Origin: an uncultured Actinomycetota bacterium
Lineage (GTDB): Bacteria; Actinomycetota; CALGFH01
Length of the DNA: 64,000 bases
Reading direction: 5' to 3'
Assembly: GCA_963733175.1 (NCBI GenBank)
Contig: CAVTCL010000003.1
Span: 11,640 to 75,639, forward strand
Under the pieces are notes generated by a model that made no database searches, was not told the origin of the DNA, and saw only the letters and a list, made by a program, of their open reading frames with translations. The translations under genes and the position numbers were made by a program. Within the stretch, counting starts at the first letter, position 1, and each line of letters begins with the position of its first letter. Positions 1-24,717 of this stretch are shown piece by piece.

Positions 1-689
1 AAGGTGATCAGGTCGACCCCCGGGTCCTCGGTCAGGGCCTGGCCGGCCTCGCCCGGCCCGAACCCCTGGACGACGTTGAGCGTCCCCGGCGGCAGGCCGG
101 CCTGGCCGGCCAGCAGGCCGAGGCGGTGGCAGGACGCCGGCGACTGCTCGGCCGGCTTGAGCACGACGGTGTTGCCGAAGGCCAGGGCGGGGGCGACCTT
201 CCAGCTGGCCAGCATGAGGGGGAAGTTCCAGGGCGAGATGGCCGCGGCCACGCCGACCGGCTCGTGCCGGGTGTAGACGTGGTGGCCGGTCGGCGAGGGC
301 AGCGCCTCGTCGGTGGCCAGGGCGGCGTAGTCGGCGAAGAAGCGGAAGTTCAGGGCCGCCCGGTGGGCGTCGTTGTCGCGGGCCTGGCGGATCGGCTTGC
401 CCATGTCGGTCGAGTCCAGCCGGCCGAGGGCGCCGGCCTGCTCCTCGATCAGGTCGGCCAGCCGGTGCAGGGCCGCCCCGCGCTCGGCCGGGGCCATCCG
501 CGGCCAGGGCCCGGCGTCGAAGGCGCGCCGGGCGGCGGCAACGGCCGCCGCCGCGTCCTCGGCCGACCCGCGGGCCACCCGGGCCCAGGCCGCCTCGGTG
601 GCCGGGTTGACCGACTCGAAGGTGCGGCCGTCGGCCGCCGGCCGCTCCTCCCCGTCGATCAGGTGCGGGATGTCGACCAGCTCGCTCAT
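1..689 (-). CDS. NAD-dependent aldehyde dehydrogenase, 2-hydroxymuconic/2-aminomuconic semialdehyde dehydrogenase type; C-terminus lies beyond the window start
   Basis: Minus-strand translation begins MSELVDIPHLIDGEERPAADGRTFESVNPATE...GKPIRQARDND...ISPWNFPLML..FGNTVVLKPAEQSP, the classic ALDH N-terminal half; ATG at 689 overlaps the stop of the upstream HAD gene (ATGA). Confidence 0.85.
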   Translation of the reverse strand, partial: MSELVDIPHLIDGEERPAADGRTFESVNPATEAAWARVARGSAEDAAAAVAAARRAFDAGPWPRMAPAERGAALHRLADLIEEQAGALGRLDSTDMGKPIRQARDNDAHRAALNFRFFADYAALATDEALPSPTGHHVYTRHEPVGVAAAISPWNFPLMLASWKVAPALAFGNTVVLKPAEQSPASCHRLGLLAGQAGLPPGTLNVVQGFGPGEAGQALTEDPGVDLIT

Positions 690-1345
690 GGGGTCCCTCC
701 GTCGTCGGACGCCAGGCCGAGGGCGTGGCGGACCTTCCGGTAGCTGTCGTCGGGCCGGGTGACGTCGAACCAGACGGCCGCCATGCCGGCGGCGGCGGCG
801 CCGGCGGCGTTGGCCGGCTGGTCGTCGACGAACACCGCCTGGTCGGGGGCGACCCCGAGGCGGTCAAGGACCAGCCGGTAGGCGGCCGGCTCCGGCTTGC
901 GGGTCCCGTGCCGGGAGGCGTCGACCACGCAGCCGACCTCGGCCAGGACCCGGATCCTGTCGATCCATGCCTGGTCGTGGAAGTCGTAGAGGTCGTTGGT
1001 GAGCACCGCCGTCTCCAGGCCGCGCCGCCGGGCGGCGGCGACCAGGTCGCGGGCCTGGGGGCGGACCAGCTCGGCCTCGGGCCCGTCGAACAGCCGGGCC
1101 ATCATGGCCGGGACCCCGTCGGTGCCCGAGACCGCCGCCACCTCGGCGGCCCGGGCCGCCCAGTAGTCCCGCTCGCCCAGCTCCCCCGCCTGCATGGCCC
1201 GCCACAGCGGGTCGGCGGCCGGGTCGAACGGCCCCCGCCAGGCGAAGGTGCCCGGCGGCACCCGCAGCGACCGCTCCATGGCGGCCACCCGCTCGAACGG
1301 GGTCACCAGCACCGGCCCGCCGAAGTCGAGCACCACCGCCTTCAC
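686..1345 (-). CDS. HAD-superfamily hydrolase, paralog 1
   Basis: VKAVVLDFGGPV...FVDDQPANAAGAAAAGMAAVWF; DxG at the N-terminus and a C-terminal DD motif; GTG start overlaps the Rieske ferredoxin stop (GTGA). Confidence 0.7.
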   Translation of the reverse strand: MKAVVLDFGGPVLVTPFERVAAMERSLRVPPGTFAWRGPFDPAADPLWRAMQAGELGERDYWAARAAEVAAVSGTDGVPAMMARLFDGPEAELVRPQARDLVAAARRRGLETAVLTNDLYDFHDQAWIDRIRVLAEVGCVVDASRHGTRKPEPAAYRLVLDRLGVAPDQAVFVDDQPANAAGAAAAGMAAVWFDVTRPDDSYRKVRHALGLASDDGGTP

Positions 1346-1719
1346 CGGTCGCCGCCCCGGGCCGGGATCCCCTCGCGGGCGTGGTCGAGGAGGAGCTCGC
1401 GCCAGGAGCGGGGCGGCGGGGCGGGCGGGACCGTGACCCGGACCTCGCCGTCGACCACCCGGACCGGGTAGCTGGCCACCGCCAGGCCCGGCTGGCCGAG
1501 CCGCCGGCCGCTGCGGACGTCGTAGCGCCACCAGTGCAGCGGGCAGACCAGCACCTCGCCGTCCAGGTAGCCGCAGGCCAGGGACCCGCCGCGGTGCAGG
1601 CAGGTGTCGTCGAGGGCGAACAGCTCCCCGCCGGCGTTGCCGACGGCCACCCGCCGCCCGGCCGCCTCCAGCAGCCGCACCGACCCGGCGGGGAGCTCCT
1701 CGACCCGTCCCGCCGCCAC
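1342..1719 (-). CDS. Rieske [2Fe-2S] ferredoxin
   Basis: CLHRGGSLACG...CPLHWW Rieske cluster motifs (CXH / CXXH); about 125 aa. Confidence 0.75.
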   Translation of the reverse strand: MAAGRVEELPAGSVRLLEAAGRRVAVGNAGGELFALDDTCLHRGGSLACGYLDGEVLVCPLHWWRYDVRSGRRLGQPGLAVASYPVRVVDGEVRVTVPPAPPPRSWRELLLDHAREGIPARGGDR

Positions 1720-1744
1720 CTCGACCGGCTCCGGCGAGGTCCGG

Positions 1745-1969
1745 TCATGCGTCGCCCTCGGACGGGCCGGGGTCGACCGGGCCCCTGGCCACCGAGTAGG
1801 GGACGCCGCCGATGCCCCACAGGTCCGGGTCGACCTCGTTGACCAGCACCCGGACCCGGTCGATGGGCGTGTCCAGGGTGCGGGCGACGACCTGCGACAC
1901 CTCCTCGACCAGCCGGATCAGCACCGCCTTGTCGCGGCCGCGGACCAGGTCGATGCGGACGAGGGGCAT
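1745..1969 (-). CDS. 4-oxalocrotonate tautomerase family protein
   Basis: MPLVRIDLVRGRDKAVLIRLVEEVSQVVARTL; N-terminal Pro-1 after Met; about 74 aa. Confidence 0.8.
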   Translation of the reverse strand: MPLVRIDLVRGRDKAVLIRLVEEVSQVVARTLDTPIDRVRVLVNEVDPDLWGIGGVPYSVARGPVDPGPSEGDA

Positions 1970-1988
1970 GGGTCCTCCTTGGGTCGGG

Positions 1989-2777
1989 TCAGCGGACGGC
2001 CAGCTCCACGGTCCCCAGCCGGCCCAGGCGGGCCACGACCACGTCGCCTGGCGCCACCGGCACCGCCTCGGTGAGCCCGCCCGACAGGACCACGTCCCCG
2101 GCGGCCAGGCCGCGCCCCCGGCGGTGGAGGGCCCGGACCAGCCAGGCCACGGCCGCGGCGGGGTGGCCGAGGGAGGCCGCCCCGGCGGCGGTCGCCCTGA
2201 CCTGCCCGCCCAGCTCCAGGACGCAGCCGACCAGGCGCAGGTCGATGCCGTCGACGGCCTGGCGGACACCCCCGAGGACCAGGCGGGCGGCCGAGGCGTT
2301 GTCGGCGACCACGTCGGGCAGGGTGAAGGCGTAGCCGGCGTAGCGGGAGTCGATCACCTCGATCGCCGGGGCCACGGCGGCGGTGGCGGCCAGCACCTGG
2401 GCGGCCCCGACGCGCTCCCCGGCCAGGTCGGTGCCGAGCAGGAAGGCGATCTCGGGCTCGACCCGGGGCTGGATGAGCCGGCCGGTGTCCAGCGGCTCGC
2501 CGACGTCGAGCAGCATGGCGTCGGTCAGCTCGCCGTAGAGCGGCTCGGCCACCCCCATCTGGGCCTGCTTGGCCCGGCTGGTCAGCCCGATCTTGTAGCC
2601 GGCCGGGCGCTCCCCCGCCGCCACCAGCAGCCGCACCCCGGCCTCCTGGACGGCGTAGGCCCCCTCGAGGTCGAGCCCGGGATGCTCGGCGGTCAGGCCG
2701 GTCCCGGCGGTGCGGCCTTCCCGCAGCCCGGCCAGCTGCCGGGCCAGGGCCTCCGGGTCGACGCCGGGGTGGCTCAC
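1989..2777 (-). CDS. 2-keto-4-pentenoate hydratase / 4-oxalocrotonate decarboxylase (MhpD fold), copy A
   Basis: 262 aa; [24 protein letters not shown]... typical MhpD/XylI/XylJ family; GTG start overlaps the aldolase stop (GTGA). Confidence 0.8.
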
Positions 2778-3817
2778 GCCGGCTGCTCCCGCGCGGCCGG
2801 CTGGCCCGCCGGGGTTGCCTTGCGGGCCAGCTCCAGGGCGACGTCGAGGATCATGTCCTCCTGGCCGCCGACGATGCGGCGGCGGCCGAGCTCGAGCACG
2901 ATCTCGCCGACGTCGACCCCGTAGCGGGCCGCGGCCCGCTGGGCGTGGAGCAGGAACGACCCGTACACCCCGGCGTAGCCGAGCAGCAGGCCGGCCCGGT
3001 CGATCACCCCCATCTCGGGCCGCAGCGGGCGCACCAGGTCCTCGGCCACCCCCATCGCCTCCAGCGGGTCGACCCCGGTGGTCAGGCCCAGCTTGTCGCA
3101 GGTGGCCACCAGCACCTCGGTCGGGCAGTTGCCGGCGCCGGCGCCGAGGCCGGCGCAGCAGCCGTCGAGCTGGTCGGCGCCCACCTCCAGGGCGGCCAGC
3201 GAGTTGGCCACGGCCAGCGACAGGTTGTTGTGGGCGTGGTGGCCGACCTGGCAGCCGAGCCCCTCGGCGAGCGTCCCCACCCGGGCCCGGGCGTCGGCGG
3301 TGGTCATGGCCCCGGCCGAGTCGACCACGTACACGCAGTCGGCCCCGTAGGACTCCATCAGCCGGGCCTGCTCCAGCAGCGCCGCGGGCTCGGCCATGTG
3401 GGCCATCATCAGGAACCCGACCGCCTCCATGCCGAGCCGCTTGGCCAGGCGGATGTGCTGGGCGGAGATGTCGGCCTCGGTGCAGTGGGTGGCGATCCGG
3501 GCCACCTGGACGCCGCGGTCGGCCATGTCGCGCAGGTCGTCGGCGACGCCGATCCCGGGCAGCAGCAGCACCGCGATCCGGGCGGTGGTGGCGGCGGCGA
3601 CCGCGGCCGAGACCAGGTCGCGCTCGTCGGTGCCGGAGAAGCCGTAGTTGAACGAGGAGCCGCCCAGCCCGTCGCCGTGGCTGACCTCGATCACCGGCAC
3701 CCCGGCGGCGTCCAGGCCGCGCACGATCGAGGTCACCTGCTCGGTGGTGTAGCGGTGCGACAGGGCGTGGGAGCCGTCGCGCAGGGTCGAGTCGGTCAGC
3801 CGGAAGGCGGCGCTCAT
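2774..3817 (-). CDS. 4-hydroxy-2-oxovalerate aldolase
   Basis: [19 protein letters not shown]...[45 protein letters not shown], the DmpG/MhpE/BphI signature; ATG overlaps the acetaldehyde dehydrogenase stop (ATGA). Confidence 0.9.
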
Positions 3818-4728
3818 ACCGGCACCTCCCGGTCGGCCCGCGCCTCGGCGATGGCCTCGCCGACCCGGACGGCGGCCGAGGTCATGATGTCGAGGTTGCC
3901 GGCGTACGGGGGCAGGTAGTCGCCGGCGCCCTCGACCTCCAGGAGGGCCACCACCCGGGCGGCGGCCGGCCCGCCCGGGGTCGCGTACGGCCCCTCCTCG
4001 AACACCGGTGGGCGCTTGAGCCGGTAGCCGGGCACGTACCTGGCGACCCGGGCCACCATGTCCTCGACCGCCTCGGCGACCGCCGCCTCGTCGTAGCCGT
4101 CGGGCAGGGCGCAGAACACGGTGTTGCGCATCAGGATCGGCGGGTCGGCGGGGTTGAGGATGATGATCGCCTTGCCGTGGCCGGCCCCGCCGACCTCCTC
4201 CAGGGAGCGGGCGGTGGTCCGGGTGAACTCGTCGATGTTCTGTCGGGTGCCCGGCCCGGCCGAGCGCGAGGCGACGGTGGAGACGATCTCGGCGTACGGC
4301 ACCGGGCTGGCCGAGGCCACCGCGGCCACGATCGGCGCCGTGGCCTGGCCGCCGCAGGTGATCAGGTTCATGTTCGGCGCGTCCAGGTGCTCGGTCAGGT
4401 TGACGCCTGGCACGACCGGCGGGCCCAGCCTGGCCGGGGTCAGGTCGACGGCGGTGATGCCGGCGGCGGCCAGCCGGGGCGCGTTGGCGGCGTGCACCCG
4501 GGCGCTGGTCGCCTCGAAGGCCAGGTCGATCTCGCCGGCATGGTCCTCGACCCAGTCGATCCCGGAGGCGGTCGCCTCCACGCCCAGCTCCCGGGCCCGG
4601 GCCAGGCCGTCGGACGCCGGGTCGATGCCGACCAGGGCCCGCAGCTCCAGCGACGGCGAGCGCAGCAGCTTGTGCACCAGGTCGGTGCCGATGTTGCCGG
4701 ACCCGATGACCACGCACGACAGCGTCAC
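3814..4728 (-). CDS. acetaldehyde dehydrogenase (acetylating), DmpF/MhpF type
   Basis: [17 protein letters not shown]...[16 protein letters not shown]; 304 aa; GTG start overlaps the hydratase copy B stop (GTGA). Confidence 0.9.
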
Positions 4729-5429
4729 GAGCTTCCTCCCCGGTGGACGACCAGGCCGACCGGGCCCAGCCAGTCGAACTCGGCCCGGAACACGTCGCCG
4801 TCGGCCAGCGGGACGGCGGCGTGGAGGGCGCCGGTCATGACCACGTGGCCGGCCTCCAGCGTCGCCCCGAGCGGGTGCAGGGTGTTGGCCAGCCAGGCGA
4901 CCGCGTGCAGCGGGTCGCCGAGGGCGGCCGCGCCGGCGCCGGTGCCGACCAGCTCGCCGTTGCGGGTGACGGCCACCCCGGCCAGCCCCGGGTCGACCTG
5001 GTCGAGGGGGACCAGGCGGCTGGACAGGGCGATGGCGGAGCTGGAGGCGAGGTCGGCGATGGTGTCGGCCAGCCGGATGCGCCAGTCGGCGATCCGGGAG
5101 TCGATGATCTCCATGGCGGCCACCGCCCCGGCGGCCGCCCGGCGGACGTCCAGGGCGGTGCAGTGGGGGCCGGCCAGCGGGGCCGCCAGGACGATGGCGA
5201 TCTCGGCCTCGACCTTGGGCTGGATCAGCCGGTCGAGGTCGACCCGGACGCCGTCGGGATGGACCCCGCCGGCCAGCACCGGGCCGTAGTCGGGCTCGTC
5301 GATGCCGAGCTGCTCCTGCATGGCCCGGCTGGTCAGGCCGAGCTTGTAGCCGACGACCTCGCCCTGGCCGTCGGCCTGGAGCAGCTCGACCAGGCGGCGC
5401 TGGACGGCGTAGGCCTCGGCGGCGGTCAT
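4725..5429 (-). CDS. 2-keto-4-pentenoate hydratase / 4-oxalocrotonate decarboxylase (MhpD fold), copy B
   Basis: [17 protein letters not shown]...[26 protein letters not shown]; 234 aa. Confidence 0.8.
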
Positions 5430-5528
5430 CTCCGGCCGCTCCGCCGGTCAGCGGCGGGACCGGGACCCGGTCGCGCCGGGCCCGGTACAGGGCCTGGGCA
5501 AGGTCCTCCACGGGCACCCCGGGCGCGG

Positions 5529-6329
5529 TCACGAGGCCCCTCGCACCCTGGAGCGCCAGCCGAGCTGGTCGGAGATGGCGTCGGCGGCCTCCATGACCGA
5601 GGCCCGGAAGAAGCGGCGCAGGGTGTCGCCGTTGACCCGCATCACCGGGCCGGCCACGCTGACGGCGGCGATCACCTCGCCGCGGGCGTTGCGGACCGGG
5701 GCGGCGACGCTGGCCACGCCGACCTCGCTCTCGCCGATGTTCTCGGCCCAGCCCTGGGCCCGGACCCGGTCCAGCTCGGCCCGGAGCTGGTCGAGGACCC
5801 AGATGGTGGCGTCGGTCTTGCGCTCGGGCCGCCACCCCTCCAGCAGCGCCGCCAGGCGCCGCTCCGGGATGTTGGCCAGCAGCACCTTGCCGGTGCTGGT
5901 GCAGTGGGCCCAGTTGCGGTGGCCGACCCGGCCGAAGAGCCGCAGCGTGTGCGGGCTCTCCAGGCGCTCGACGTAGACCACCTCGCGGCCGTCCAGCACC
6001 GCCACCTGGACCGTCTCCTTGGTGGCGTTGCGCAGCTCCTCGAGCACGGTGGTGGCGGCGTCGTGCAGGACCCGGTGCACCGACACCCTGGCCCCCAGCT
6101 CCCACATCATCAGCCCCAGCCGGTAGGTGCCGGTGGCCGGGTCGTGCTCCAGGATCCGCTCGGCGGTCAGGGTGGCCAGCAGCCGGTGCACGGTCGACTT
6201 GCCCAGCCCCAGCCGCCGGGCCAGCTCGGTCACCCCCAGCGACCCGTCGGCCGTGCCGAACTCCTTGAGCAGCCGCGCCGCGTTCTGCACCGACGTGAGC
6301 GTCGCCCCGTCCCGCCGCGCGCGATTCAC
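5529..6329 (-). CDS. IclR-family transcriptional regulator
   Basis: N-terminal helix-turn-helix [24 protein letters not shown] plus a C-terminal IclR effector domain; GTG start; 266 aa. Confidence 0.8.
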
Positions 6330-7084
6330 CCTGACCCACCTGGTTCTGGGGCCCCTGAACGGGAGGGTAGCCCACTCGGGTGGGAGGTGCCCTCGGTTGT
6401 CCCCAGGGCCTTGACCAGGGCGGCCCGGATGGCGGCGGGGTCGGTGGCGGCGGCGACGGCCTGGTCGCCGGGGGCGAGCTCGCGGGCCAGGAGGGCCTGG
6501 GCGCGGACCAGGCCGGCGGTGGTGGCCCCGGCGAGCTCGTCGACCAGCTCCTGGCGGCCCGGGGCGCGGGCCCGGATCGTCTCCAGCTCGCGGGCGGCGG
6601 TGGCGTGGGCGCTGGCCAGGCCGGTGCCGGCGTGGGTGGCGTGGTGCGGGGTGAGCTGGGAGCCGGGCTCGACCACCAGGTGGTACAGGTAGGTCCCGAC
6701 CCCGAGCACGCGGCGGACCTCCTCGGGGGCGGGCCCGTCGGTCTCGGCGACCAGGCCGAGCACGGGCAGCACCACCGGGTCGAAGAAGCGCAGCCGCCAG
6801 GCGAGCCCGTCGGCCTCCCCGGCCACCTCGACCTCCTGGCCGGCCGGGGCCGGGAACCGCTCGCCGGTCCCGATCACGTGCAGGTTGCGGGCCCCGGCGG
6901 CGGCCACCGTCAGCCGCGAGGCCGCCAGCAGCGGCAGCCGGGCCTGCTCGGCCGGTGGCAGCAGCCGGGCCTGGGCCAGGTAGGCCTCGTGCACGGCGGC
7001 CACGAAGTCGGCCATGGCCTGGCGCATCTGCTCCGGGCCGGCCGTCGCGGCCGGCGCCTGGGGCGGGAGGTCTGGCTGGGGCAT
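6326..7084 (-). CDS. hypothetical protein
   Basis: ORF from [36 protein letters not shown]; no domain recognised; sits between the IclR gene and the divergent catechol 2,3-dioxygenase promoter; the start choice is uncertain. Confidence 0.4.
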
Positions 7085-7187
7085 GGTCTGGCGACCATAG
7101 CCCACGTTCCTCCATGCGGGAAGGGACGCTATCCCGCGGAGCGGGACGCCCGTACCTTCTTCCAAGCCGCCCGGACAAGGAGCGCGC

Positions 7188-8100
7188 ATGGGGATCCTCC
7201 GCCTGTCGCACGTGGACGTGCGCGTGCCCGACCTCGACCTCGCCAGCGCCTACTACACCGAGGTCATGGGCCTGCTCGAGGTCGAGCGGACGGCCACCGA
7301 GGTGTTCCTCAAGTGCTGGGACGAGACCGACCACCACTCGGTCAAGCTGAGCTACGCCCCCCGGGTCGGCCTGGACCTGATCAGCTTCAAGGTCGAGGCC
7401 GACGAGGACCTGGCCGACCCTGGAGTCGCGGGTCGAGCGCTACGGCTTCCCGGTGCGCCGGGTCTCCCGCGGCGAGTCGGTCGGCCAGGGCGAGTCGATC
7501 CGCTTCGAGACCCCGTCGGGCCAGATGATGGAGCTGGTCCGCGAGGTCGAGCGGGTCGGCGGGCTGCTGCCCAAGCTCAACCCGCCCCCGTTCCCGCCCC
7601 AGGACCTGCGCGGCATCGCCCCGCCCCGCATCGACCACGTCCTGGTCACCGCCGAGGAGGTCGGCGAGGCCACCCGCTTCTACATGGAGGTGCTGGGGTT
7701 CCGGCTGACCGAGCAGCTGCTGGACGGCAACGGCCACCAGATCGGCGTCTGGATGGAGCGGTCCCACTCCCCCCACGACCTGGCCGTGGTCACCGGGGCC
7801 AACGGCGGGCTGCACCACTTCGCGTTCTGGCTGGACGACTGGGACCACGTGCGCAAGGCGGCCGACATCCTGGCCTACAACGGCGTCCAGATCGACGTCG
7901 GCCCGACCCGCCACGGCATCACCCGCGGCAACACCATCTACTTCTTCGACCCCCTGGGGACCCGCAACGAGGTGTTCACCGGCGGCTACCGGCCCGACCC
8001 GGACTTCCCCACCATCACCTGGACCGAGGACAACATCGGCCGGGCGATCTTCTACTACGAGGGCGACCTGAACGAGCGGTTCATGAAGGTCCACACCTGA
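7188..8100 (+). CDS. catechol 2,3-dioxygenase (extradiol, vicinal oxygen chelate), copy 1, with an apparent +1 frameshift
   Basis: MGILRLSHVDVRVPDLDLASAYYTEVMGLLE... continues in another frame from about 7420 (..GESIRFETPSGQMMELVREVERVGGLLP...HHFAFWLDDWDHV...); an extra C in gaccctggag at 7417-7420 relative to copy 2. Confidence 0.75.
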
Positions 8101-8101
8101 G

Positions 8102-9013
8102 ATGGGGATCCTGCGCCTGTCGCACGTCGAGGTCCGGGTGCCGGACCTGGAGCTGGCCACCGCCTACTACACCGAGGTGCTGGGGCTGCTGGAGACGGGC
8201 CGGGACGCCGAGCGGGTGTTCCTCAAGTGCTGGGACGAGCACGAGCACCACTCGGTGATCCTGCGCTATGCCGCCACCTACGGCCTGGAGCACATGGGCT
8301 TCAAGGTCGAGCACCCCGACGACCTGGAGCACTTCGAGCAGCGGGTCGAGAAGGACGGCGGCCAGGTGACCCGCCACGCCCGCGGCGAGCTCGCCCCCGG
8401 GCACGGCGAGGCCATCCGCTTCCAGACCCCGACCGGGCACCGCTGCGAGCTGGTCTGGGGGATGGAGAAGGTCGGCAACCTCCTCCCCCGCACCAACCCG
8501 CCGCCGCGGCCGCTGGGGCTGGTCGGGATCGCCCCGCCGCGCCTCGACCACATCTTCGTCACCGCCGAGGACGTCGACGAGGGGACCCGGTTCTTCCGCG
8601 AGGTGCTGGGGTTCCGGCTGACCGAGCAGATCCTGGCCGACGACGGCCACCAGCTCGCCACCTGGCTGGAGGTCTCCCACACCCCCCACGACATCGCCCT
8701 GGTCACCGGGCCCAACGGGGGCCTGCACCACTTCGCCTTCTGGCTCGACGACTGGAACGAGGTCCGCACCGCCGCCGACACCCTGGCCTACCACGGGGTG
8801 CCGATCGACGTCGGCCCGACCCGCCATGGGGCCACCCGCGGGTTCGCCGTCTACTTCTTCGACGCCGCCGGCAACCGCAACGAGGTGTTCACCGGCGGCT
8901 ACTGGGTCGACCCCGACCACGAGCCCGTCACCTGGACCGAGGCCGAGATGGGGCGGGCCATCTTCTACTACGAGGGCGCCGTCAACCAGCGGTTCCTGAC
9001 CGTGCACAGCTGA
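8102..9013 (+). CDS. catechol 2,3-dioxygenase, copy 2 (intact)
   Basis: 303 aa MGILRLSHVEVRVPDLELATAYYTEVLGLLE...LHHFAFWLDDWNEV...; full-length XylE/DmpB-type; tandem to copy 1. Confidence 0.9.
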   Translation: MGILRLSHVEVRVPDLELATAYYTEVLGLLETGRDAERVFLKCWDEHEHHSVILRYAATYGLEHMGFKVEHPDDLEHFEQRVEKDGGQVTRHARGELAPGHGEAIRFQTPTGHRCELVWGMEKVGNLLPRTNPPPRPLGLVGIAPPRLDHIFVTAEDVDEGTRFFREVLGFRLTEQILADDGHQLATWLEVSHTPHDIALVTGPNGGLHHFAFWLDDWNEVRTAADTLAYHGVPIDVGPTRHGATRGFAVYFFDAAGNRNEVFTGGYWVDPDHEPVTWTEAEMGRAIFYYEGAVNQRFLTVHS

Positions 9014-9340
9014 CAGGGAGGGGAGGCGAGATGGCCGAGGACCCGCCGCTGCCGCGGACCGAGCGGCCCGACGCGCCCCTGTACCTGGCCAGCTACCTGC
9101 GGCGGCGGGCCAGGGCGGCCGCTCCCGAGCCCGGCGGCGAGCCGGCACCGGCCGAGGCCGGGGCCGACGCGGCCACGCCGCTGTACCTGCGCCGGTTCCG
9201 GGAGCGGCGGGCCGACCCGGACGCCCCCGACGCCCCCCCGCCGGTCTGGAACGGCGAGCCGCTGGAGGTGACCAGGGCCTGGGCCGAGATCACCCGGACC
9301 AAGGAGATCGTCCCCGAGACCGGGCGCCGGCGCCTTCCGG

Positions 9341-10099
9341 GTGGCCGCCCAGGTCCACATCATCCGCCACGGCGAGACCCAGGGGTACTCGACCGAGAGC
9401 GGCCTCACCCCCCTCGGCGGCTGGCAGGCCCACCGGCGCGGCTTCGACCTGTCCAAGGGCATCCGCGACGGCGAGCAGGTCCGGATCGTCTGCGCCGACA
9501 CCAACCGGGCCCGCCAGACGGCCGAGCACCTCCACCGGGGCCTGCTCGACGGCCTCGACCTGTGGCGCCGCGACGCCAAGGTGGCCGAGCCGCGGCCCAT
9601 GGCCGAGTTCCGCAACTTCCAGGTCGCCACCCCCGACGGCCTGCGCGACGTGACCAGCGCCTTCCGCATGTACCACGCGCTGGCCGAGCGGTACGAGCGG
9701 GTCGCCCTCGGGGACCGGCCGATGTGGCTGGTCGAGGTGGACCGGTTCTGGAACGTCCAGCAGGGCGGGGCCGACCCCATCCACCACTGGATGACCATCC
9801 CCATGCTCCACTTCGAGCCGCCGGCGAGCTGCGTGCGCCGCTTCTGGGCCGGCTTCCAGCGCCTGGTCGACGAGGCCCCCGGGGCCCGGATCCTCTGCGC
9901 CACCCACTCCGGCCCCATCCGCGCGTTCGCCGCCTGGGCGGTCGGCTACGATCCCGGCGAGCCCTACAACACCGAGGAAGTGCTGGTGAAGCTGAAGGAG
10001 GGCGGCGGCGAGGCCCTGGTCGCCTACCGCAACCGGGTCCAGGAGGTCCAGGTCCCGCCCACCGGCGAGCGGCCCGACTGGTGGGAGGGCATCCGGTGA
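9341..10099 (+). CDS. histidine phosphatase family protein (phosphoglycerate mutase-like)
   Basis: VAAQVHIIRHGETQGYSTESGLTPLGGWQAH...CATHSGPIRAF; RHG catalytic motif; GTG start; stop overlaps the next gene (GTGA). Confidence 0.75.
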   Translation: MAAQVHIIRHGETQGYSTESGLTPLGGWQAHRRGFDLSKGIRDGEQVRIVCADTNRARQTAEHLHRGLLDGLDLWRRDAKVAEPRPMAEFRNFQVATPDGLRDVTSAFRMYHALAERYERVALGDRPMWLVEVDRFWNVQQGGADPIHHWMTIPMLHFEPPASCVRRFWAGFQRLVDEAPGARILCATHSGPIRAFAAWAVGYDPGEPYNTEEVLVKLKEGGGEALVAYRNRVQEVQVPPTGERPDWWEGIR

Positions 10100-11185
10100 G
10101 CTTCGTGCGCTGGCTGGACGGCTACGACCCGGCCGAGCGGGCCCGCCTGGGGGGCAAGAACGCCAGCCTGGGGGAGCTGCTGGCGGCCGGGCTGCCGGTG
10201 CCGCCCGGGTTCGCGGTCACCGTCGACGCCTACCACACCGTCCGCGGCCACCCCGAGGTCCGCCGGGCCGTCACCGGGCTGCTGGGCGAGGTCGACCTGG
10301 CCGACCCGGCCGCCCTGGAGGAGCTGAGCGCCGCCATCCGCCGCCGCATCGAGGAGGTCCCCCTGCACGACGGCGTGGCCGCCGAGGTCCGCGCCGCCTA
10401 CCAGGAGCTGTGCGAGCGCTGCGCCGGCGAGGCGGTGCCGGTGGCGGTGCGCTCCTCGGCCACCTCCGAGGACCTGCCCGACGCCAGCTTCGCCGGCGAG
10501 CACGACACCTACCTGTGGGTCCGCGGCCCCGACGACGTGCTCGCCCACCTCACCCGCTGCTGGTCGAGCCTGTTCACCGCCAGGGCGATCGCCTACCGGC
10601 GCGAGCGGGGCTACGACCACGACGTGGTCGCCATGTCGGTCGGGGTCCAGAAGATGGTCCGCCCCACCGCCTCGGGGGTGGCCTTCACCCTCAACCCCCG
10701 CGACGGCGACCGCTCCCAGGTCGCGGTCGAGTCCGCCTGGGGCTTCGGCGAGGGCATCGTGTCCGGCGAGGTCACCCCCGACAGCTTCCTGGTCGACAAG
10801 GTCCTTGGCGAGATCGTGCAGCGCACCATCTCCGACAAGGCGGTCGAGTACCGGCTGGGCGACGGCGACCGGGTCGAGCGGGCGCCGGTCGACCAGGACC
10901 AGGCGGACCGCCCCCAGCCTCACCGACGACCAGGTCAAGGCGGTGGCCCGCCTGGCCCGCCAGGCCGAGCGGCACTACCGCCGCCCCCAGGACGTGGAGT
11001 GGGCGCTGGACGGCGACCTGCCCGCCGGGCAGGCCGTGACCCTGCTCCAGGCCCGGCCGGAGACGGTCTGGAGCCGCAAGGCGGCCACGCCGGTCGCCAC
11101 CGCCGCCGACCCGATGGCCAGCATCGTGGCCACCCTCGTGTCGCCGCTGCACGCACGTGAAGCTTCGGACCAGCCCGGGCCCTGA
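10096..11185 (+). CDS. PEP-utilising enzyme N-terminal ATP/nucleotide-binding domain protein (PPDK_N; phenylphosphate synthase PpsB-like), copy 1, apparent frameshift
   Basis: VSFVRWLDGYDPAERARLGGKNASLGELL...VRSSATSEDLPDASFAGEHDTYLWV...MSVGVQKMVRPTASGVAFTLNP; the C-terminal ..LTDDQVKAVARLARQAERHYRRPQDVEWALDG...LLQARPETVWS is in another frame from about 10911 (C5 run). Confidence 0.75.
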
Positions 11186-11213
11186 CCCGGGCATCGACGG
11201 AAAGGACACGGCC

Positions 11214-13032
11214 ATGGCGGACCGGTTCCCGAGCCCCTTCGAGATCGAGACCCCGGCGGGGGCCGAGGGGTGGCAGGAGCTGTACACCTACTCGCTGCCG
11301 TTCTCGACCGACCGGCGCGAGTACGAGGACTCGATGTTCTGGTTCCAGGACGGGGTCCACTGGCCGGCGGTCATGAGCCCCTGGGACGCCACCTTCTACG
11401 AGTTCGCCCTGGCCTCGCTGTCGCAGTACAACACCCGCCACTACCTGATCCCGCCGGCCCTCGGGGTCGACTTCCGGGTGCTCAACGGCTACGCCTACCT
11501 GTCCCCGGTCGGGGTCGCCGACCCGGCCGAGATCGAGGCCAGGGTCCCCCACTTCCTGGAGCGGGCCGGCTTCTACTTCCAGAACTGGGCGACGCTGTAC
11601 GAGCAGTGGATGGGCAAGATCCGCGGGCTGATCGGCGAGATGGAGGCGCTCAGCTTCGAGCCGCTGCCCGACAAGGAGGACCTGGCCGTGGTCACCGAGG
11701 GCCGCGGCATGGGCTCGGGGTTCGAGCTCCAGCGCAGCTACCACCGGCTGGTCGACCTGGCCCTGCAGCTGTGGCAGTACCACTTCGAGTTCCTCAACCT
11801 CGGCTACGCCGCCTACCTGGACTTCTTCGGCTTCTGCAAGCAGGCCTTCCCCAGCATCCCCGACCTGGCCATCGCCAAGATGGTCGCCGGGGTCGAGGTC
11901 GACCTGTTCCAGCCCGACGAGGAGCTGAAGAAGCTGGCCCGCCTGGCCGTCGACTCCGGCGTCGGCGACGCCTTCGACCGGCCCTCGGCCGCCGAGGTGA
12001 TCGAGGCCCTGCGGGCCAGCGACGCCGGGCAGGCGTGGCTGTCGCAGTGGGAGGCGTCGGCCCAGCCGTGGTTCAACTTCTCGGCCGGCAGCGGCTTCTA
12101 CCACACCGACGAGGTGTGGCTGGAGCACCTGGAGATCCCGTTCGGGTTCGTGCGCGACTACATCGCCAAGCTCCGCGACGGGGTCGACATCAGCCGTCCC
12201 ATCGACGCCATCCGGGCCGAGCGCGACCGGATCGTCGGCGAGTACGGCGAGCTGCTGGCCACCGACGAGGACCGGGCCGCCTTCGAGCAGAAGCTCGGCC
12301 TGGCCCGGGTGGTGTTCCCCTATGTCGAGAACCACAACTTCTACGTCGAGCACTGGAGCCACTCGGTGCTGTGGCGCAAGATGCGCCAGCTCGGCGGCGT
12401 CCTGGCCAAGGAGGGCTTCTTCGGCGGCGAGGACGACATCTTCCTGCTCAAGCGGGACGAGGTCCCCGAGGCGCTGTGGGACTACTACAGCGCCTGGGCG
12501 GTCGGGACCCAGCCGCGCGGCCCGGCCTACTGGGGCCGGGAGCTGGAGCGGCGCCGGGGCATCCTGACCGCGCTGCGGTCCTGGTCGCCCCCGCCCGCCC
12601 TCGGCCGGCCGCCCGAGGTCGTGACCGAGCCGTTCACCATCATGCTCTGGGGCATCACCGGCGAGAGCGTCAAGCAGTGGCTGGGGGCCGGCGACGGCGC
12701 CGGCGACGGCACCCTCAAGGGCTTCGCCGCCTCCCCGGGGGTGGCCGAGGGGCCGGCCCGGGTGATCTTCTCGGCCGACCAGATCGGCGAGATCCAGGCG
12801 GGCGAGATCCTGGTCGCCCCCCTGACCGCGCCCGAGCTGGGCGCCCATCTTCGGCAAGATCGGGGCCACCGTGACCGACGTCGGCGGGATGATGGCCCAT
12901 GCCGCCATCGTCTGCCGCGAGTACGGGCTGCCGGCGGTGACCGGCACCGCCTTCGGGACCAAGACGATCAAGACCGGCCAGCGCATCCGCGTGGACGGCA
13001 ACCAGGGCACCGTCACCATCCTGGAACCGTAA
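11214..13032 (+). CDS. PEP-utilising enzyme with C-terminal mobile (swivel His) domain (PpsA-like), copy 1, apparent frameshift
   Basis: MADRFPSPFEIETPAGAEGWQELYTYSLPF...; C-terminal GFAASPGVAEGPARVIF...EILVAPLTAPE then a frame change at about 12845 to ..IFGKIGATVTDVGGMMAHAAIVCREYGLPAVTGT...VDGNQGTVTILEP; good Shine-Dalgarno (gaaagga) 8 nt upstream. Confidence 0.8.
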
Positions 13033-13044
13033 GGAGGCCGTTGC

Positions 13045-14295
13045 ATGCTGACCGCCGAGCAGAACGCCGAGCTGACCCGGGTCGGGCCGGGGACGCCCAT
13101 GGGCGAGCTCCTGCGCCGCTACTGGTACCCGGTGGCCTTCACCCGCCAGCTCGAGGAGTTCCCGGTGAAGCGGGTGCGGCTGCTCGGCGAGGACTGGGCC
13201 CTGTACAAGACCCCGGACGGGTCCTACGGGGTGGTCGAGGAGCACTGCCCCCACCGGCGGGCGTCGCTGGCCTACGGGGTGGTCGAGCCCGAGGGCCTGC
13301 GCTGCGGCTACCACGGCTGGCTGTTCGGCCGCGACGGGACCTGCCTGGACCAGCCGGCCGAGCTCGACAAGACCTCGTTCAAGGACCGGGTCCGGGCCCG
13401 GGCGGGCCGGGCCCAGGAGCTGGGCGGCATGGTCTGGGTGTACGTGGGCCCGGAGCCGGCGCCGCTGCTGCCCCGCTACGACGTGTACGTGATGGACGGG
13501 GTGCGCGACTTCGGCCACGCCCTGCTGCCCTGCAACTGGCTGCAGATCATGGAGAACGCCGTCGACCCCCACCATGTCGAGTGGCTGCACGGCCGCTACT
13601 TCGAGTTCCTCGGCAACCGGATGGGGTTCGAGGCCCCCAAGTCGTTCCAGCGCCGCCACGTCAAGGTCGCCTTCGACGAGTTCGACCACGGCATCATCAA
13701 GCGCCGGCTGCTGGAGGGCCACAGCGAGGACGACGACGACTGGGCCATCGGCCACCCGATGGTGTTCCCCTACTGCATGCGGGTCGGGGGCGCCGGCATC
13801 GAGCAGATGCAGATCCGGGTGCCGGTCGACGACACCACCACCTGGTTCGTGCTCTACACGGTCCACGCCCCCGAGGGGGCACCTGCCCCCGACCAGGCCG
13901 CCATCCCCGACTACGAGCTGCCCTGGCGCGACGAGCAGGGCAACCACATCGTCGACTACGTCGAGGGCCAGGACATCATGGCCTGGGTCACCCAGGGCCC
14001 GATCACCGACCGGACGGTCGAGCACCTCGGCAAGTCGGACGTGGGCATCGCCATGCTCCGCAAGCAGTTCAAGCAGCAGCTGGCCGCGGTGGCGGCCGGC
14101 CGCGACCCGATCGCCGTGGTCCGCGACCCGGCGGCCAACGCCCGCATCGACCTGCCGTGCGAGAAGAACAAGTTCGGCGCCGGAGCCGACTTCGCCCTCC
14201 AGTGGATGAACCTCGGCTTCACCCGGTACTCGCCGCAGCTCCAGGACCTGCTGCGCCTCCACACCGAGGCGGCCGAGGTCCGGGCCGATGCCTGA
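13045..14295 (+). CDS. Rieske non-heme iron aromatic-ring-hydroxylating oxygenase, alpha subunit
   Basis: CPHRRASLAYG...CGYHGW Rieske motif plus a mononuclear-iron domain (..NAVDPHHVEWLHG..); 416 aa; aaggagg Shine-Dalgarno; no beta subunit or reductase nearby. Confidence 0.85.
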   Translation: MLTAEQNAELTRVGPGTPMGELLRRYWYPVAFTRQLEEFPVKRVRLLGEDWALYKTPDGSYGVVEEHCPHRRASLAYGVVEPEGLRCGYHGWLFGRDGTCLDQPAELDKTSFKDRVRARAGRAQELGGMVWVYVGPEPAPLLPRYDVYVMDGVRDFGHALLPCNWLQIMENAVDPHHVEWLHGRYFEFLGNRMGFEAPKSFQRRHVKVAFDEFDHGIIKRRLLEGHSEDDDDWAIGHPMVFPYCMRVGGAGIEQMQIRVPVDDTTTWFVLYTVHAPEGAPAPDQAAIPDYELPWRDEQGNHIVDYVEGQDIMAWVTQGPITDRTVEHLGKSDVGIAMLRKQFKQQLAAVAAGRDPIAVVRDPAANARIDLPCEKNKFGAGADFALQWMNLGFTRYSPQLQDLLRLHTEAAEVRADA

Positions 14296-14551
14296 GGCGG
14301 ACCTGCTGCCGGAGGACCCGCACCCCCTGCCGCCGCCCACCGCCTGGTTCGCCCGCGACGCCGAGCGCCACCTGCTGGACGCCCCCCGCCACTGCCCCCG
14401 CTGCGGCGCCGCCATCGGCGGTCCCGACGGCCTGGTGGTCGAGTACTGGGCGGCCGACGACCGCGTCTTCTACTGCTGGTGCCGCTCCTGCGACTGGACC
14501 GGCACCGTGGTCCAGGTCGACCGCCACATCGGCCACGAGGCGGCCGACTAG
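14288..14551 (+). CDS. small zinc-ribbon-like hypothetical protein
   Basis: 87 aa with CPRCGAA...CWCRSC (two CxxC pairs); ATG overlaps the oxygenase stop (ATGCCTGA). Confidence 0.4.
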   Translation: MPEADLLPEDPHPLPPPTAWFARDAERHLLDAPRHCPRCGAAIGGPDGLVVEYWAADDRVFYCWCRSCDWTGTVVQVDRHIGHEAAD

Positions 14552-14809
14552 GGAGCGGGTCGGGTATCCGGGTTGAGGGGACTTGGATGGCCGGCGTCGG
14601 GTAGGGCCGGGGGCCGTCGGGTCCGGTGCGGGTGGAGCTGGGCAGCGGTCGGGTCGGGACTGGCACGGTCGGGCCCCATGCAGTTGCCTGGCACGGGGGT
14701 TGGCCTCGACCCGGCGGGCACGCTGCGACGACCCGGCTCGGTGGGAGAAGTTGTCCCCAGATGTGGTTGTGGTGCTTGCCTTGGAGTGAGGGGCTGATAG
14801 GTTGCTCCC

Positions 14810-16157
14810 ATGGACTCGAACACACATTCGACCAGCCAGCCGACCGGGACACCAGCGGGGTTGTCGGCGCTGGTCGCCGAGCTCCAAGAGCTGGCCGACC
14901 AGGACCCGGACCGGCTGGCCGACGGCGCCCGGGCCGAGCGGGTCATGGTGTTGCGACAGCTGGTCGAGCGCCTGGAAGGCCACTGGCTGGCCGAACTGGC
15001 CGCCTGGACGCCCGCGGGGCCGCCGGCGCCGAGCAGGGCGTCCAGGCCGGCTCCACCGCCGGCTGGCTGCGCCACCGGCTGCGCATGAGCGCCGGCACCG
15101 CCGCCAGCTTGCGTCCGGACCGCCCGGGCGCTGTACCGCGGCCCCCTGACCCGGCACCGGCCAGGCCCTGGCCGACGGGGAGCCATCTCCCCGGCCCACG
15201 CCCAGGTGCTGGCCGCCGGCACCCAGGATCTGCCCGACCAGGTCACCGCCGAGGCCGAACCGGTCCTGCTGGAGGCGGCCCGGCGGCTGGACCCACCCCG
15301 GCTGCGACGAGCCATCGCCCACCTGCGCCTGGTGGCCGACCCCGACGGCGCCGACGCACCAGGCCGAACGGCGCCACAGCAGCGGGGGCTGTGGCTGTCG
15401 CCGACCTGGGAGGGCATGGTCGCCGTCAACGGGCTGCTGGACCCCGAGGCCGGCCAGACCCTGCTGGCCGCCCTGGAGCCGTTGGCCCGCCCCACCAACG
15501 CCGACGACACCCGCAGCGGGTGGCCAGCGCCGGGCCGATGCCCTCACCGAGCTGGCCCGCCGCACCCTGGAAGCCGGCCAGCTCCCCCAGAGCGGTGGGG
15601 TCCGGCCCCAGCTGCTGGTGACCGTGGACCTGGACAGCCTCCTCGGCCACCCCGGACTGGGCTGGGCGGGGAGGCCGGCGGGCCCTGGCCGCTGGACCCC
15701 GAGACCTGCCGGCGGCTGGCCTGCGACGGCGCCGTCACCCGGGTGCTGGTCACCCGCCACCGGACCCACCACCACCAGGACCCCGGCGGCGATGGGCAGC
15801 CTGGCCGGCCGGCTCCAGGCGGCGGCGACCCGGCTCCCCCCGGCCCTTGGCGGCGCCCCCACCCAACCGCTGGAGGTCGGCCGCACCAGCCGGGTCGTCA
15901 CCGCCGCCCAACGGGCCGCCCTGGTCGTCCGCGACGGCGGCTGTGCGGTGCCCGGCTGCGACCGGCCCCCGGCCTGGTGCGAAGCCCACCATCTCCGCCA
16001 CTGGCTCCATGGCGGCCCCACCGACCTGGCCAACCTGGCCTTGCTGTGCCGGGCCCACCATCGCGCGGTCCACGAGGGCGGCTGGCGGCTCACCCGCGGC
16101 CCGGACGGCCGGCTGGCCGCCACCCCACCGCATCGAAAACACCGTGCCGCGGCCTGA
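14810..16157 (+). pseudogene. HNH endonuclease / DUF222 (13E12-repeat family) gene disrupted by several frameshifts
   Basis: Pieces are spread over three frames: ..LVAELQELADQDPDRLADGARAERVMVLRQLVERLEGHWLAELAAW / LDARGAAGAEQG..AGWLRHRLRMSAGTAASL / ..ISPAHAQVLAAGTQDLPDQVTAEAEPVLLEAARRLDPPRLRRAIAHLRLVADPDG / ..VRDGGCAVPGCDRPPAWCEAHHLRHWLHGGPTDLANLALLCRAHHRAVHEGGWRL (HNH motif). Confidence 0.65.
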
Positions 16158-16215
16158 CCCGGCGACCCGACAACCGCACCTGACCCGCGACCCCGCCCAT
16201 GACCGAACTCCGGCC

Positions 16216-18421: not shown

Positions 18422-18924
18422 CGTCGGCGGTCGCGCCGGACCACCAGCTCCAGCTCGACCGCGAACCCGAGCGGGAGGGCGGCCACCCCGACCGCCGAGC
18501 GGGCATGGCGGCCGCGGTCGCCGAACAGCTCCACCAGCAGGGCCGAGGCGCCGTCGACCACGGCCGGGACGGCGGTGAAGCCGGGGGTGCAGGCGACGAA
18601 GCCGACCAGCTTGACGACCTGGCCCACCTGGTCCAGGTCGCCGAGGGCGTCGCGGGTCTGGGCGAGCAGGTTCAGCGCGCAGTCGCGGGCGGCCTTCTGG
18701 CCCTGCTCGACGGTGAGGTCGGCCCCGAGGCGGCCGACCCAGCCGTCGGCGCCCTGGCCGGACAGGAACAGCAGGTCGCCGGCTGACACCCAGCCCTCGT
18801 ACAGCCCGGCCCTTGGCCGCAGCGCCGGCAGCTCCAGGCCCAGCTCGGCCAGCCGCCGTTCCGGGCCGGGTCCCTCCGGTGGCCGGCCGCGGGGTGGGAC
18901 GGCGAACACCCGGCCCGGGCTCAT
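18418..18924 (-). CDS. RidA/YjgF/TdcF-family protein (enamine/imine deaminase); candidate 2-aminomuconate deaminase
   Basis: 168 aa ..LVGFVACTPGFTAVPAVVDGASALLVELFGDRGRHARSAVGVAALPLG..; the RidA fold. Confidence 0.7.
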   Translation of the reverse strand: MSPGRVFAVPPRGRPPEGPGPERRLAELGLELPALRPRAGLYEGWVSAGDLLFLSGQGADGWVGRLGADLTVEQGQKAARDCALNLLAQTRDALGDLDQVGQVVKLVGFVACTPGFTAVPAVVDGASALLVELFGDRGRHARSAVGVAALPLGFAVELELVVRRDRRR

Positions 18925-22397: not shown

Positions 22398-22406
22398 CTG
22401 GGCCTC

Positions 22407-22700: not shown

Positions 22701-22723
22701 GCCGCTCCTCCCTCTCGTGCGTG

Positions 22724-23549: not shown

Positions 23550-23562
23550 CGGGCACCCCGCT

Positions 23563-24700: not shown

Positions 24701-24717
24701 CTGGCGGTAGGGCTGGG

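Follow-up and report, generated by a model that had tools for sequence, protein, structure and literature searches.

Gene context of a Rieske ferredoxin and a HAD-family hydrolase that recur together in an actinobacterial catechol meta-cleavage cluster

The Pseudomonas dmp and xyl operons (dmpCDEFGHI and xylGFJQKIH) are among the closest described counterparts of an operon at the start of a 64,000-nucleotide stretch of DNA from an uncultured Actinomycetota bacterium (contig CAVTCL010000003.1; the whole stretch is hereafter called the window). The operon carries the same set of 4-oxalocrotonate-branch enzymes in the same dmpEFGHI internal order, and its core is an ordinary catechol meta-cleavage lower pathway. 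It differs from the Pseudomonas operons in lacking a hydrolase (DmpD/XylF) gene and the plant-type XylT/DmpQ ferredoxin, in having the aldehyde dehydrogenase gene at its 3' end instead of upstream, in the divergent position of the dioxygenase genes, and in the presence inside it of an iclR gene, a gene for a His-rich protein, and inserted genes for a Rieske ferredoxin and a HAD-family hydrolase. The original prediction, made from the window sequence, regarded the last two as an unusual local insertion. The present comparison contradicts that view, as the two genes constitute a conserved, sometimes fused module of a widespread actinobacterial cluster. What is new here is a lead from gene context, namely that the Rieske ferredoxin and the HAD hydrolase appear to travel together, sometimes as one protein, in a cluster type of at least 116 GTDB species.

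With the Rieske ferredoxins TodB, BphF/BphA3, HcaC, CarAc, and AndAb, the window ferredoxin has a single Rieske domain and the CxH...CxxH ligands in common. In the car operon, carAc is encoded among the meta-cleavage genes and not beside its oxygenase gene, like the window ferredoxin. The window ferredoxin differs from these proteins by scores below the HcaC and AndAb cut-offs, by a conserved tail of ~25 amino acids, by its pairing or fusion with a HAD hydrolase, and by the lack of an encoded cognate reductase; the oxygenase that it presumably serves is homo-oligomeric and of the phthalate family, and not of the alpha-beta type. With XylT and DmpQ it shares the character of a small [2Fe-2S] protein in a catechol meta-cleavage cluster without an obvious reductase. 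However, these known reactivating ferredoxins are plant-type Cys4 proteins encoded immediately in front of the dioxygenase gene, whereas the window ferredoxin is Rieske-ligated and its gene is not adjacent to the dioxygenase genes but 5.5 kb away, on the opposite strand.

In the Cre pathway, an aryl phosphate is the substrate of a P450 that has a dedicated ferredoxin. Aerobic actinobacteria are known to use a PpsAB-like kinase and, at a later step, a phosphohydrolase, as with HpeHI and HpeD or CreHI and CreD (PMC9618137; PMC12167813); HpeHI, HpeCBA, and HpeD have been characterized in Rhodococcus rhodochrous GD02 (PMC9618137), and CreHI starts 4-cresol catabolism in Corynebacterium glutamicum (PMC9618137; PMC12167813). 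The window likewise brings together a two-subunit PpsAB-like dikinase (~40 + 70 kDa; both genes frameshifted) and a phosphohydrolase in one aerobic actinobacterial aromatic cluster. In contrast to Cre and Hpe, the system is known here from genes alone, its oxygenase is of the Rieske type and neither a P450 nor a carboxylase, its phosphatases are HAD-IA (like YihX and the N-terminal domain of soluble epoxide hydrolase) and histidine-phosphatase-like whereas HpeD is NagD-like, and its product would pass to catechol meta-cleavage and not to 4-hydroxybenzoate or vanillate.

Gene identities were assigned by translation of open reading frames (ORFs) and by Pfam and NCBIfam profile scans. The genes on which the comparison turns are as follows.

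686-1345, minus strand: HAD-IA hydrolase of 219 amino acids, a predicted phosphatase (Pfam Hydrolase E = 8e-17; TIGR01509 52 bits, cut-off 29.4)
1342-1719, minus strand: stand-alone Rieske [2Fe-2S] ferredoxin of 125 amino acids (Pfam Rieske E = 1e-15)
10096-13032, plus strand: two-subunit dikinase resembling PpsAB, CreHI, and HpeHI (Pfam PPDK_N E = 4e-86; NCBIfam PRK08296 730 bits)
13045-14295, plus strand: phthalate-family (LigXa-like) Rieske oxygenase of 416 amino acids, the proposed ferredoxin acceptor (Pfam Rieske, LigXa_C, and VanA_C)
14288-14551, plus strand: small 4-Cys protein of 87 amino acids overlapping the oxygenase stop, zinc-ribbon or rubredoxin-like, with CPxC...CxxC invariant in the alignment

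A motif scan located the ferredoxin ligands, CLH-x16-CPLH, at 1534-1602, in the arrangement Cys-x-His ... Cys-x-x-His of a single small domain. The best NCBIfam match was HcaC-like (PRK09965, 72.7 bits against a cut-off of 113), and AndAb scored 59.8 bits (cut-off 150), both below equivalog level, and the best PDB matches and nearest characterized relatives were the oxygenase ferredoxins TodB, BphF, BphA3, and CarAc. The protein exceeds TodB/BphF/CarAc-type ferredoxins by a conserved C-terminal extension (SWRELLLDHA). Close homologues (74-95% identity) were found only in metagenomes and metagenome-assembled genomes (MAGs) of Actinomycetota, the next level being ~50% identity. The annotation of several contigs contains this cluster as well. 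A six-frame motif scan of the 64-kb window revealed two Rieske motifs only, those of the ferredoxin and the 13045 oxygenase, with no further Rieske protein and no credible plant-type ferredoxin motif. The earlier description of 13045 as a lone Rieske oxygenase therefore holds for the window, but the enzyme has a conserved partner in the 4-Cys protein, which co-occurs with it in 49 of 51 oxygenase-positive loci. The best PDB match of the oxygenase was the phthalate dioxygenase PDO_KF1 (E = 1.5e-48). LigXa itself works with a ferredoxin, LigXc, which is not known to be of the Rieske type. The dikinase consists of an ATP-grasp subunit (10096-11185, frameshifted near 10901) and a swivel-His subunit (11211-13032, frameshifted near 12830), with intact orthologues of 362 and 605 amino acids and PDB matches to domains of RPH and phosphoenolpyruvate (PEP) synthase; the sizes and domain split of this ATP-grasp and PEP-utilizer pair are those of the phenol dikinases PpsAB, CreHI, and HpeHI.

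Related loci were retrieved with the His-rich protein encoded by the first gene of the operon (6326-7084), a specific marker of the cluster type that was confirmed by tblastn in 116 GTDB species loci. Eighty species-level genome loci out of these 116 were scored by tblastn with all window proteins, and the counts refer to the 43 loci having full 10-kb flanks. Pseudonocardia, Actinomycetospora, Acidimicrobiia, Nanopelagicales, and others carry the cluster, among them the cultured strains Pseudonocardia sulfidoxydans NBRC 16205 (L028) and Actinomycetospora sp. CA-101289 (L035); its gene content is as follows.

Marker gene, IclR, dioxygenases, and histidine phosphatase: 43 of 43 loci
Hydratase: 42 of 43 loci
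Rieske ferredoxin: 42 of 43 loci
Decarboxylase: 41 of 43 loci
Tautomerase: 37 of 43 loci
LigXa-like oxygenase: 35 of 43 loci
Close-type kinase pair: 13 of 43 loci
HAD hydrolase: 13 of 43 loci
Aldehyde dehydrogenase, aldolase, and acetaldehyde dehydrogenase: 9-11 of 43 loci

The ferredoxin gene nearly always lies directly after the tautomerase or decarboxylase gene, and this position is kept down to 35-56% protein identity in Pseudonocardiales, Acidimicrobiia, and Nanopelagicales. Ferredoxin and LigXa-like oxygenase occur together in 34 of the 43 loci, so that 34 of the 35 oxygenase-bearing loci carry the ferredoxin. The two genes never share a strand and lie 0.46-17 kb apart, the smallest distance being that of convergent neighbours in Pseudonocardia sulfidoxydans (L028). 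Because the co-occurrence holds over this whole range, the link between ferredoxin and oxygenase survives rearrangement. The proposal that the ferredoxin could be the missing electron donor of the 13045 oxygenase gains comparative support from these 34 loci, despite extensive rearrangement; the absence of a reductase from the cluster and the eight loci without oxygenase are held against it below.

As for the HAD hydrolase, all four sequence motifs (LDFGG, LTND, RKP, and FVDD) are present and, in the alignment, conserved across paralogues and fusions. In motif I (DFGG) a Gly stands two positions after the nucleophile Asp, as in the phosphatase YihX. The closest PDB matches were the N-terminal phosphatase domain of soluble epoxide hydrolase and YihX, and the score against TIGR02247, the epoxide-hydrolase-N-terminal-like phosphatase subfamily, was 75 bits, below the cut-off of 125. 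Across the loci, the HAD gene lies directly after the ferredoxin gene in 13 and at the end of the kinase-oxygenase operon in 9. It was detected in 11 of 13 kinase-positive but 2 of 30 kinase-negative loci (Fisher p ~1e-6, uncorrected for phylogeny), an association with a phenylphosphate-synthase-like kinase that was absent from the earlier sequence reading. Moreover, all three HAD paralogues of the window sit with dikinase subunits, the genes of the other two each immediately following one for a dikinase subunit (18921-19718 after 19925-21754, and 30605-31258 after 31259-32299).

Four loci of this cluster type encode a natural fusion of Rieske ferredoxin and HAD hydrolase in a single ORF.

L064, 11486-12520: Rieske ferredoxin-HAD fusion
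L078, 11541-12566: Rieske ferredoxin-HAD fusion
L093, 4456-5415: Rieske ferredoxin-HAD fusion
L094, 3522-4583: Rieske ferredoxin-HAD fusion

In L064 and L078 the fusion, of 341-344 amino acids, is encoded straight after iclR, without lower-pathway genes. A database search with a fusion query uncovered at least eight fusion protein clusters at identities from 43% to 98%; the two divergent ones (43-44%) belong to the same cluster type (L093 and L094), and the L094 fusion gene is directly upstream of a PEP-utilizer gene. In the fusions, the ferredoxin tail (SWRExLLxHA) forms the linker, and the Rieske ligands and the four HAD motifs are all retained. This architecture suggests that dephosphorylation may be physically coupled to the oxygenase reaction.

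Taken as a whole, the gene context, from which substrate, step order, and electron transfer are all deduced, indicates that the ferredoxin and the HAD hydrolase are probably not lower-pathway enzymes but accessory genes of the divergent upper module, the ferredoxin feeding the 13045 oxygenase and the HAD removing the phosphate installed by the kinase. The dikinase would phosphorylate a phenolic substrate, and the Rieske oxygenase would act on the phosphorylated compound, taking electrons via the ferredoxin from a reductase whose gene lies elsewhere. The HAD hydrolase, paired with or fused to the ferredoxin, would then strip the phosphate to yield a catechol, which the two dioxygenases would cleave. 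By analogy, this logic would parallel that of the Cre (4-cresol) and Hpe (hydroxyphenylethanone) pathways. A wider proposal, more doubtful and put forward tentatively, is that the cluster represents an undescribed aerobic route, widespread in Actinomycetota (Pseudonocardia, Actinomycetospora, Acidimicrobiia, and freshwater Nanopelagicales), in which a phenol would be phosphorylated, the aryl phosphate would be the substrate of a LigXa-like Rieske monooxygenase served by a phosphatase-tethered ferredoxin, and the catechol would be unmasked at once for meta-cleavage; such a route could be the upper pathway of the ARO microcompartment encoded in the same window.

Several observations weigh against assigning the ferredoxin to the oxygenase and the HAD to the kinase product. 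A kinase step ahead of aerobic hydroxylation costs ATP, for which there is no demonstrated rationale here. The nearest solved relatives of the oxygenase, PDO_KF1 and RO_CH34, are two-component systems that receive electrons directly from a reductase without a ferredoxin, and the 4-Cys partner could itself be a redox carrier, or else an accessory subunit. The ferredoxin is present without a Rieske oxygenase within 10 kb in 8 of the 43 loci, where a search for any other Rieske oxygenase within that distance found none, and, conversely, L011 and L012 carry the oxygenase without the ferredoxin. With 42 of 43 loci, the ferredoxin is more closely associated with the dioxygenase and lower-pathway core than with the oxygenase, and the oxygenase family has more than 6,800 matches against 74 for the ferredoxin family. 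A ferredoxin reductase was not found in the related loci whose annotation was read, nor in the parts of the window examined (beyond 25 kb, a scan of part of the genes). The co-occurrence statistics are uncorrected for shared ancestry, and literature searches returned no paper describing this cluster type, the ferredoxin-HAD module, or the fusion. Nothing relevant was returned, either, on the combination of a PpsAB-like kinase with a Rieske oxygenase and meta-cleavage. As to possible reductases, no PDR-type reductase is encoded beside the oxygenase in L010, L011, or L012, and a 554-amino-acid receiver-domain and thioredoxin-reductase-like flavoprotein, which adjoins the dehydrogenase in close relatives, was considered a candidate for the missing reductase but not adopted, being confined to four close loci.

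Three other explanations were weighed. The ferredoxin may be an analogue of XylT/DmpQ that restores oxidatively inactivated catechol 2,3-dioxygenases by re-reducing their active-site iron, in which case the oxygenase would not be fed and the HAD would be a separate accessory enzyme. Its place in an invariant core with the dioxygenases, tautomerase, and decarboxylase, its persistence in the eight loci without the oxygenase, and its location in the meta-pathway operon, as for xylT, with no reductase-ferredoxin-oxygenase trio encoded, would all agree with such a role. However, the protein is of the Rieske type and closest to oxygenase ferredoxins, it is encoded at the far end of the divergent operon, and the role leaves no place for the recurrent HAD fusion or for the presence of the ferredoxin in all but one of the oxygenase-containing loci; with literature searches giving no precedent for a Rieske ferredoxin in dioxygenase reactivation, this explanation is considered unlikely. 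The fusions, in which the two domains form one polypeptide in several lineages with the ferredoxin extension as linker, could also be taken to denote a redox-sensing or regulatory phosphatase, for example one setting the phosphorylation of the dikinase or of an intermediate pool according to the oxygen or redox state, and both the tracking of the kinase by the HAD and the lack of a reductase in the cluster would fit. Yet most loci carry the ferredoxin without the HAD (42 versus 13 of 43), which argues that the ferredoxin has a function of its own, and by sequence it is a standard low-molecular-weight ferredoxin of the oxygenase type; to our knowledge, there is no precedent for a Rieske-regulated HAD enzyme, and a regulatory phosphatase appears quite improbable.

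It is very improbable that the two genes are unrelated passengers, with the ferredoxin serving an oxygenase elsewhere in the genome, the HAD being a housekeeping phosphatase, and their position resulting from operon shuffling. The conserved ferredoxin position across Pseudonocardiales, Acidimicrobiia, and Nanopelagicales, the repeated fusions, and the HAD-kinase association, recurring across loci and three times within the window, all speak against it, even though HAD-IA hydrolases are abundant and promiscuous and the gene order of the cluster is very fluid, and even though few loci carry the aldehyde dehydrogenase, aldolase, and acetaldehyde dehydrogenase. The role as accessory genes of the upper module is preferred for both the ferredoxin and the HAD hydrolase.

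The operon is made up of ten genes on the minus strand, from 7084 to beyond position 1, and region 1-5429 holds its eight distal genes. Besides the HAD and ferredoxin genes, it and the adjoining intergenic region comprise the following.

1-689, minus strand: N-terminal 229 amino acids of an aldehyde dehydrogenase that runs off the window, 2-hydroxymuconic-semialdehyde-dehydrogenase-like (Pfam Aldedh E = 3e-65)
1745-1969, minus strand: 4-oxalocrotonate tautomerase of 74 amino acids (Pfam Tautomerase E = 3e-14, 52.9 bits, cut-off 22)
1989-2777, minus strand: DmpH-like 4-oxalocrotonate (2-oxo-3-hexenedioate) decarboxylase of MhpD fold (catechol_dmpH 248 bits versus catechol_dmpE 208 bits)
2774-3817, minus strand: 4-hydroxy-2-oxovalerate aldolase of DmpG type (TIGR03217 494 bits, cut-off 286; Pfam HMGL-like and DmpG_comm)
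3814-4728, minus strand: acetylating acetaldehyde dehydrogenase of DmpF type (TIGR03215 421 bits, cut-off 282; AcetDehyd-dimer domain)
4725-5532, minus strand: DmpE-like 2-oxopent-4-enoate hydratase, interrupted by a +1 insertion (catechol_dmpE 213 bits versus dmpH 175 bits)
5529-6329, minus strand: IclR-family regulator (Pfam HTH_IclR and IclR_C), translationally linked by 4-bp overlaps on both sides
6326-7084, minus strand: His-rich conserved protein of 252 amino acids, first gene of the operon
7085-7187, between the divergent genes: intergenic region of 103 bp with an inverted repeat, TCCCGC-GGA-GCGGGA, at 7132-7146

The family assignments bear out the original prediction that the operon is of the lower meta-cleavage type, follows the dehydrogenase (4-oxalocrotonate) branch, and encodes two paralogues of MhpD fold; by NCBIfam score, one of these best matches DmpE hydratase and the other DmpH decarboxylase. 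Both paralogues score below the NCBIfam equivalog cut-offs of 350-409 bits, and the pattern of best models fits a hydratase and a decarboxylase. In the tautomerase (MPLVRIDLVRGRDK...DRVRV), Pro1, Arg11, and Arg39 are all present, with NCBIfam equivalog cut-offs not reached. The aldolase and acetaldehyde dehydrogenase genes are adjacent and overlapping, and both products score above their NCBIfam cut-offs. Orthologues of the aldehyde dehydrogenase have 478 amino acids, and the catalytic Cys falls outside the window; a full-length orthologue (L013:16650-18086) scored 563 bits against HpaE (cut-off 638) and 535 bits against OH_muco_semi_DH (cut-off 693). As the dehydrogenase branch is present without a hydrolase gene, the substrate is deduced to be catechol or a 4-substituted catechol. 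Conversion of the ring-fission product of catechol to pyruvate and acetyl-CoA via this operon is thus a well-supported prediction, in which the aldehyde dehydrogenase, tautomerase, decarboxylase, hydratase, aldolase, and acetylating acetaldehyde dehydrogenase would act in turn, and the IclR regulator encoded in the operon would control it.

The window has a base composition of ~76% G+C, with third-codon-position G+C (GC3) near 1.0, and since such high G+C puts ORFs in all frames, true frames were picked by codon-position composition. This frame analysis placed all coding segments from position 1 to ~7100 on the minus strand and, with the translations and profile scans, agreed with the eight consecutive minus-strand genes previously listed for region 1-5429. 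All five of the 4-bp start/stop overlaps were recovered when read directly on the minus strand (ATGA at 686-689, GTGA at 1342-1345, GTGA at 2774-2777, ATGA at 3814-3817, and GTGA at 4725-4728), most of them with a GGAGG-like Shine-Dalgarno sequence 5-10 nt upstream, and the remaining two junctions among the eight genes are spacers of 19 nt and 25 nt. The operon, however, was not found to start at 5429, as had been assumed: GTGA overlaps at 5529-5532 (iclR stop and original hydratase start) and 6326-6329 (His-rich gene and iclR) extend the chain to an ATG at 7084. Such overlaps make up 6 of 9 junctions in the operon region (7 of 9 with the hydratase frameshift repaired) compared with 4 of 36 co-directional pairs elsewhere in the window, as called by a crude gene caller, and are therefore enriched in the operon region. 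The enrichment is modest, somewhat more than background, such overlaps being common in high-GC actinobacterial operons. The tight translational coupling that had been deduced from the overlaps is compatible with this gene packing. Synteny, intact genes, and the same 4-bp overlaps were observed in an NCBI MAG (L002) and, at 91-94% DNA identity, in two GTDB MAGs (L013 and L014).

The His-rich protein had no family match in the Pfam and NCBIfam scans; a multiple alignment revealed invariant His, Tyr, Trp, and Asp residues, and its gene is always the first, overlapping iclR. The 103-bp region upstream of it, which separates the operon from the dioxygenase genes, is likely a promoter/operator region, with the inverted repeat as a candidate operator for IclR. 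No sites emerged when 1-7600 was scanned for consensus promoters and terminators, a result of little weight at 76% GC that does not address internal terminators.

The hydratase had been assigned a start at ATG 5429, giving an ORF of 234 amino acids, but this ORF is artefactual, the product of a +1 insertion. When aligned with L013 and L014, its two closest genome loci, the window has one extra base near 5445. The catechol_dmpE match of the window protein begins at model position 30, the first 29 positions being encoded in another frame at 5446-5532, and the native start is GTG at 5532, overlapping the iclR stop by 4 bases. An intact orthologue scored 240 bits against catechol_dmpE over model positions 3-249, and in L002 the hydratase is intact, with 266 amino acids, and overlaps iclR. 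Four more uncompensated single-base insertions relative to L013 and L014 were located at ~7416 (first dioxygenase copy), ~9325 (histidine phosphatase), ~10901 (kinase small subunit), and ~12830 (kinase large subunit). Frames downstream of the insertions have GC3 near 1.0 and ~90% identity to the relatives. Because all five lesions are single-base insertions with clean downstream frames, they are read as probable sequence errors, and for the same reason true pseudogenization of the hydratase was judged less likely. The indel pattern resembles that of an indel-prone assembly rather than gene decay. At least five window genes are thus broken by single-base insertions, for which annotation of the window should allow. 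Elsewhere in the window, an FAD/BBE oxidase gene (17013-18421) is split over two frames near 17400-17440, and an HNH endonuclease gene (14626-16183) is in pieces.

The divergent module (7188-14551, plus strand) contains, in addition to the dikinase, oxygenase, and 4-Cys protein genes, the following.

7188-9013, plus strand: tandem pair of catechol 2,3-dioxygenase paralogues (TIGR03211 380 bits, cut-off 320); 7188-8100 has a frameshift near 7416, and 8102-9013 is intact
9031-10099, plus strand: histidine-phosphatase-superfamily protein, frameshifted near 9325 (Pfam His_Phos_1; orthologues of 349 amino acids)

Both dioxygenase copies are intact at 303 amino acids in L002 and L013, and the window paralogues share ~78% DNA identity. 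Since every related locus has the duplication, it is old and presumably functional. The closest relatives remain syntenic up to exactly 14551, beyond which the window has DUF222/HNH-type endonuclease fragments (14551-16200), and L013 at this position has a seven-transmembrane membrane protein gene followed by RidA and HAD genes. In L011 (1-6000), the dioxygenase, oxygenase, and IclR core adjoins genes for UbiD, a UbiX-like flavoprotein, a NagD-type HAD, an AMP-ligase, and a PEP-utilizer, a set that we take to resemble the phenylphosphate carboxylase system of anaerobic phenol degraders.

An ARO-like microcompartment locus with shell and LigB-type dioxygenase genes was also detected at 18418-25479, 13-20 kb from the operon.

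18418-18924: RidA-like protein, on the same strand as the next six ORFs
18921-19718: HAD paralogue
19925-21754: PEP-utilizer dikinase subunit
21751-22059: EutN
22059-22397: BMC-H
22407-23549: second LigB-like ORF continuing into a BMC domain, either a real fusion or an indel artefact
23579-24639: LigB subunit
24718-25479: IclR regulator, divergent

In the description of ARO satellite loci by Doron et al. 2023 (PMC10470539), an IclR gene precedes late meta-pathway genes, including a tautomerase, in a genome with ARO shell and LigB-type dioxygenase genes; the same paper mentions no Rieske protein, ferredoxin, phosphatase, or kinase. In the window, the iclR gene at 5529-6329 is upstream of the pathway genes, and BMC-H, EutN, and two LigB genes occur at 21751-24639, in agreement with the definition of a satellite locus. 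The operon need not serve the microcompartment, because class I catechol 2,3-dioxygenases are also present here. The kinase and phosphatase genes inside the ARO operon could bear on the ARO upper pathway. Further along, on the minus strand at 29371-32299, a second PPDK_N dikinase subunit gene (31259-32299) is directly followed by genes for the third HAD paralogue (30605-31258), an alpha/beta hydrolase (29847-30608), and a PNPOx-like protein (29371-29850), with 4-bp overlaps at two junctions.

If the proposed roles of the ferredoxin and the HAD hydrolase are true, the phosphorylate-transform-dephosphorylate strategy of the Cre and Hpe pathways would extend to Rieske oxygenases and catechol meta-cleavage. 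In addition, the ferredoxin would become a candidate electron donor for a very large family of orphan LigXa-like oxygenases, and the cluster would provide candidate upper-pathway genes beside an ARO microcompartment.

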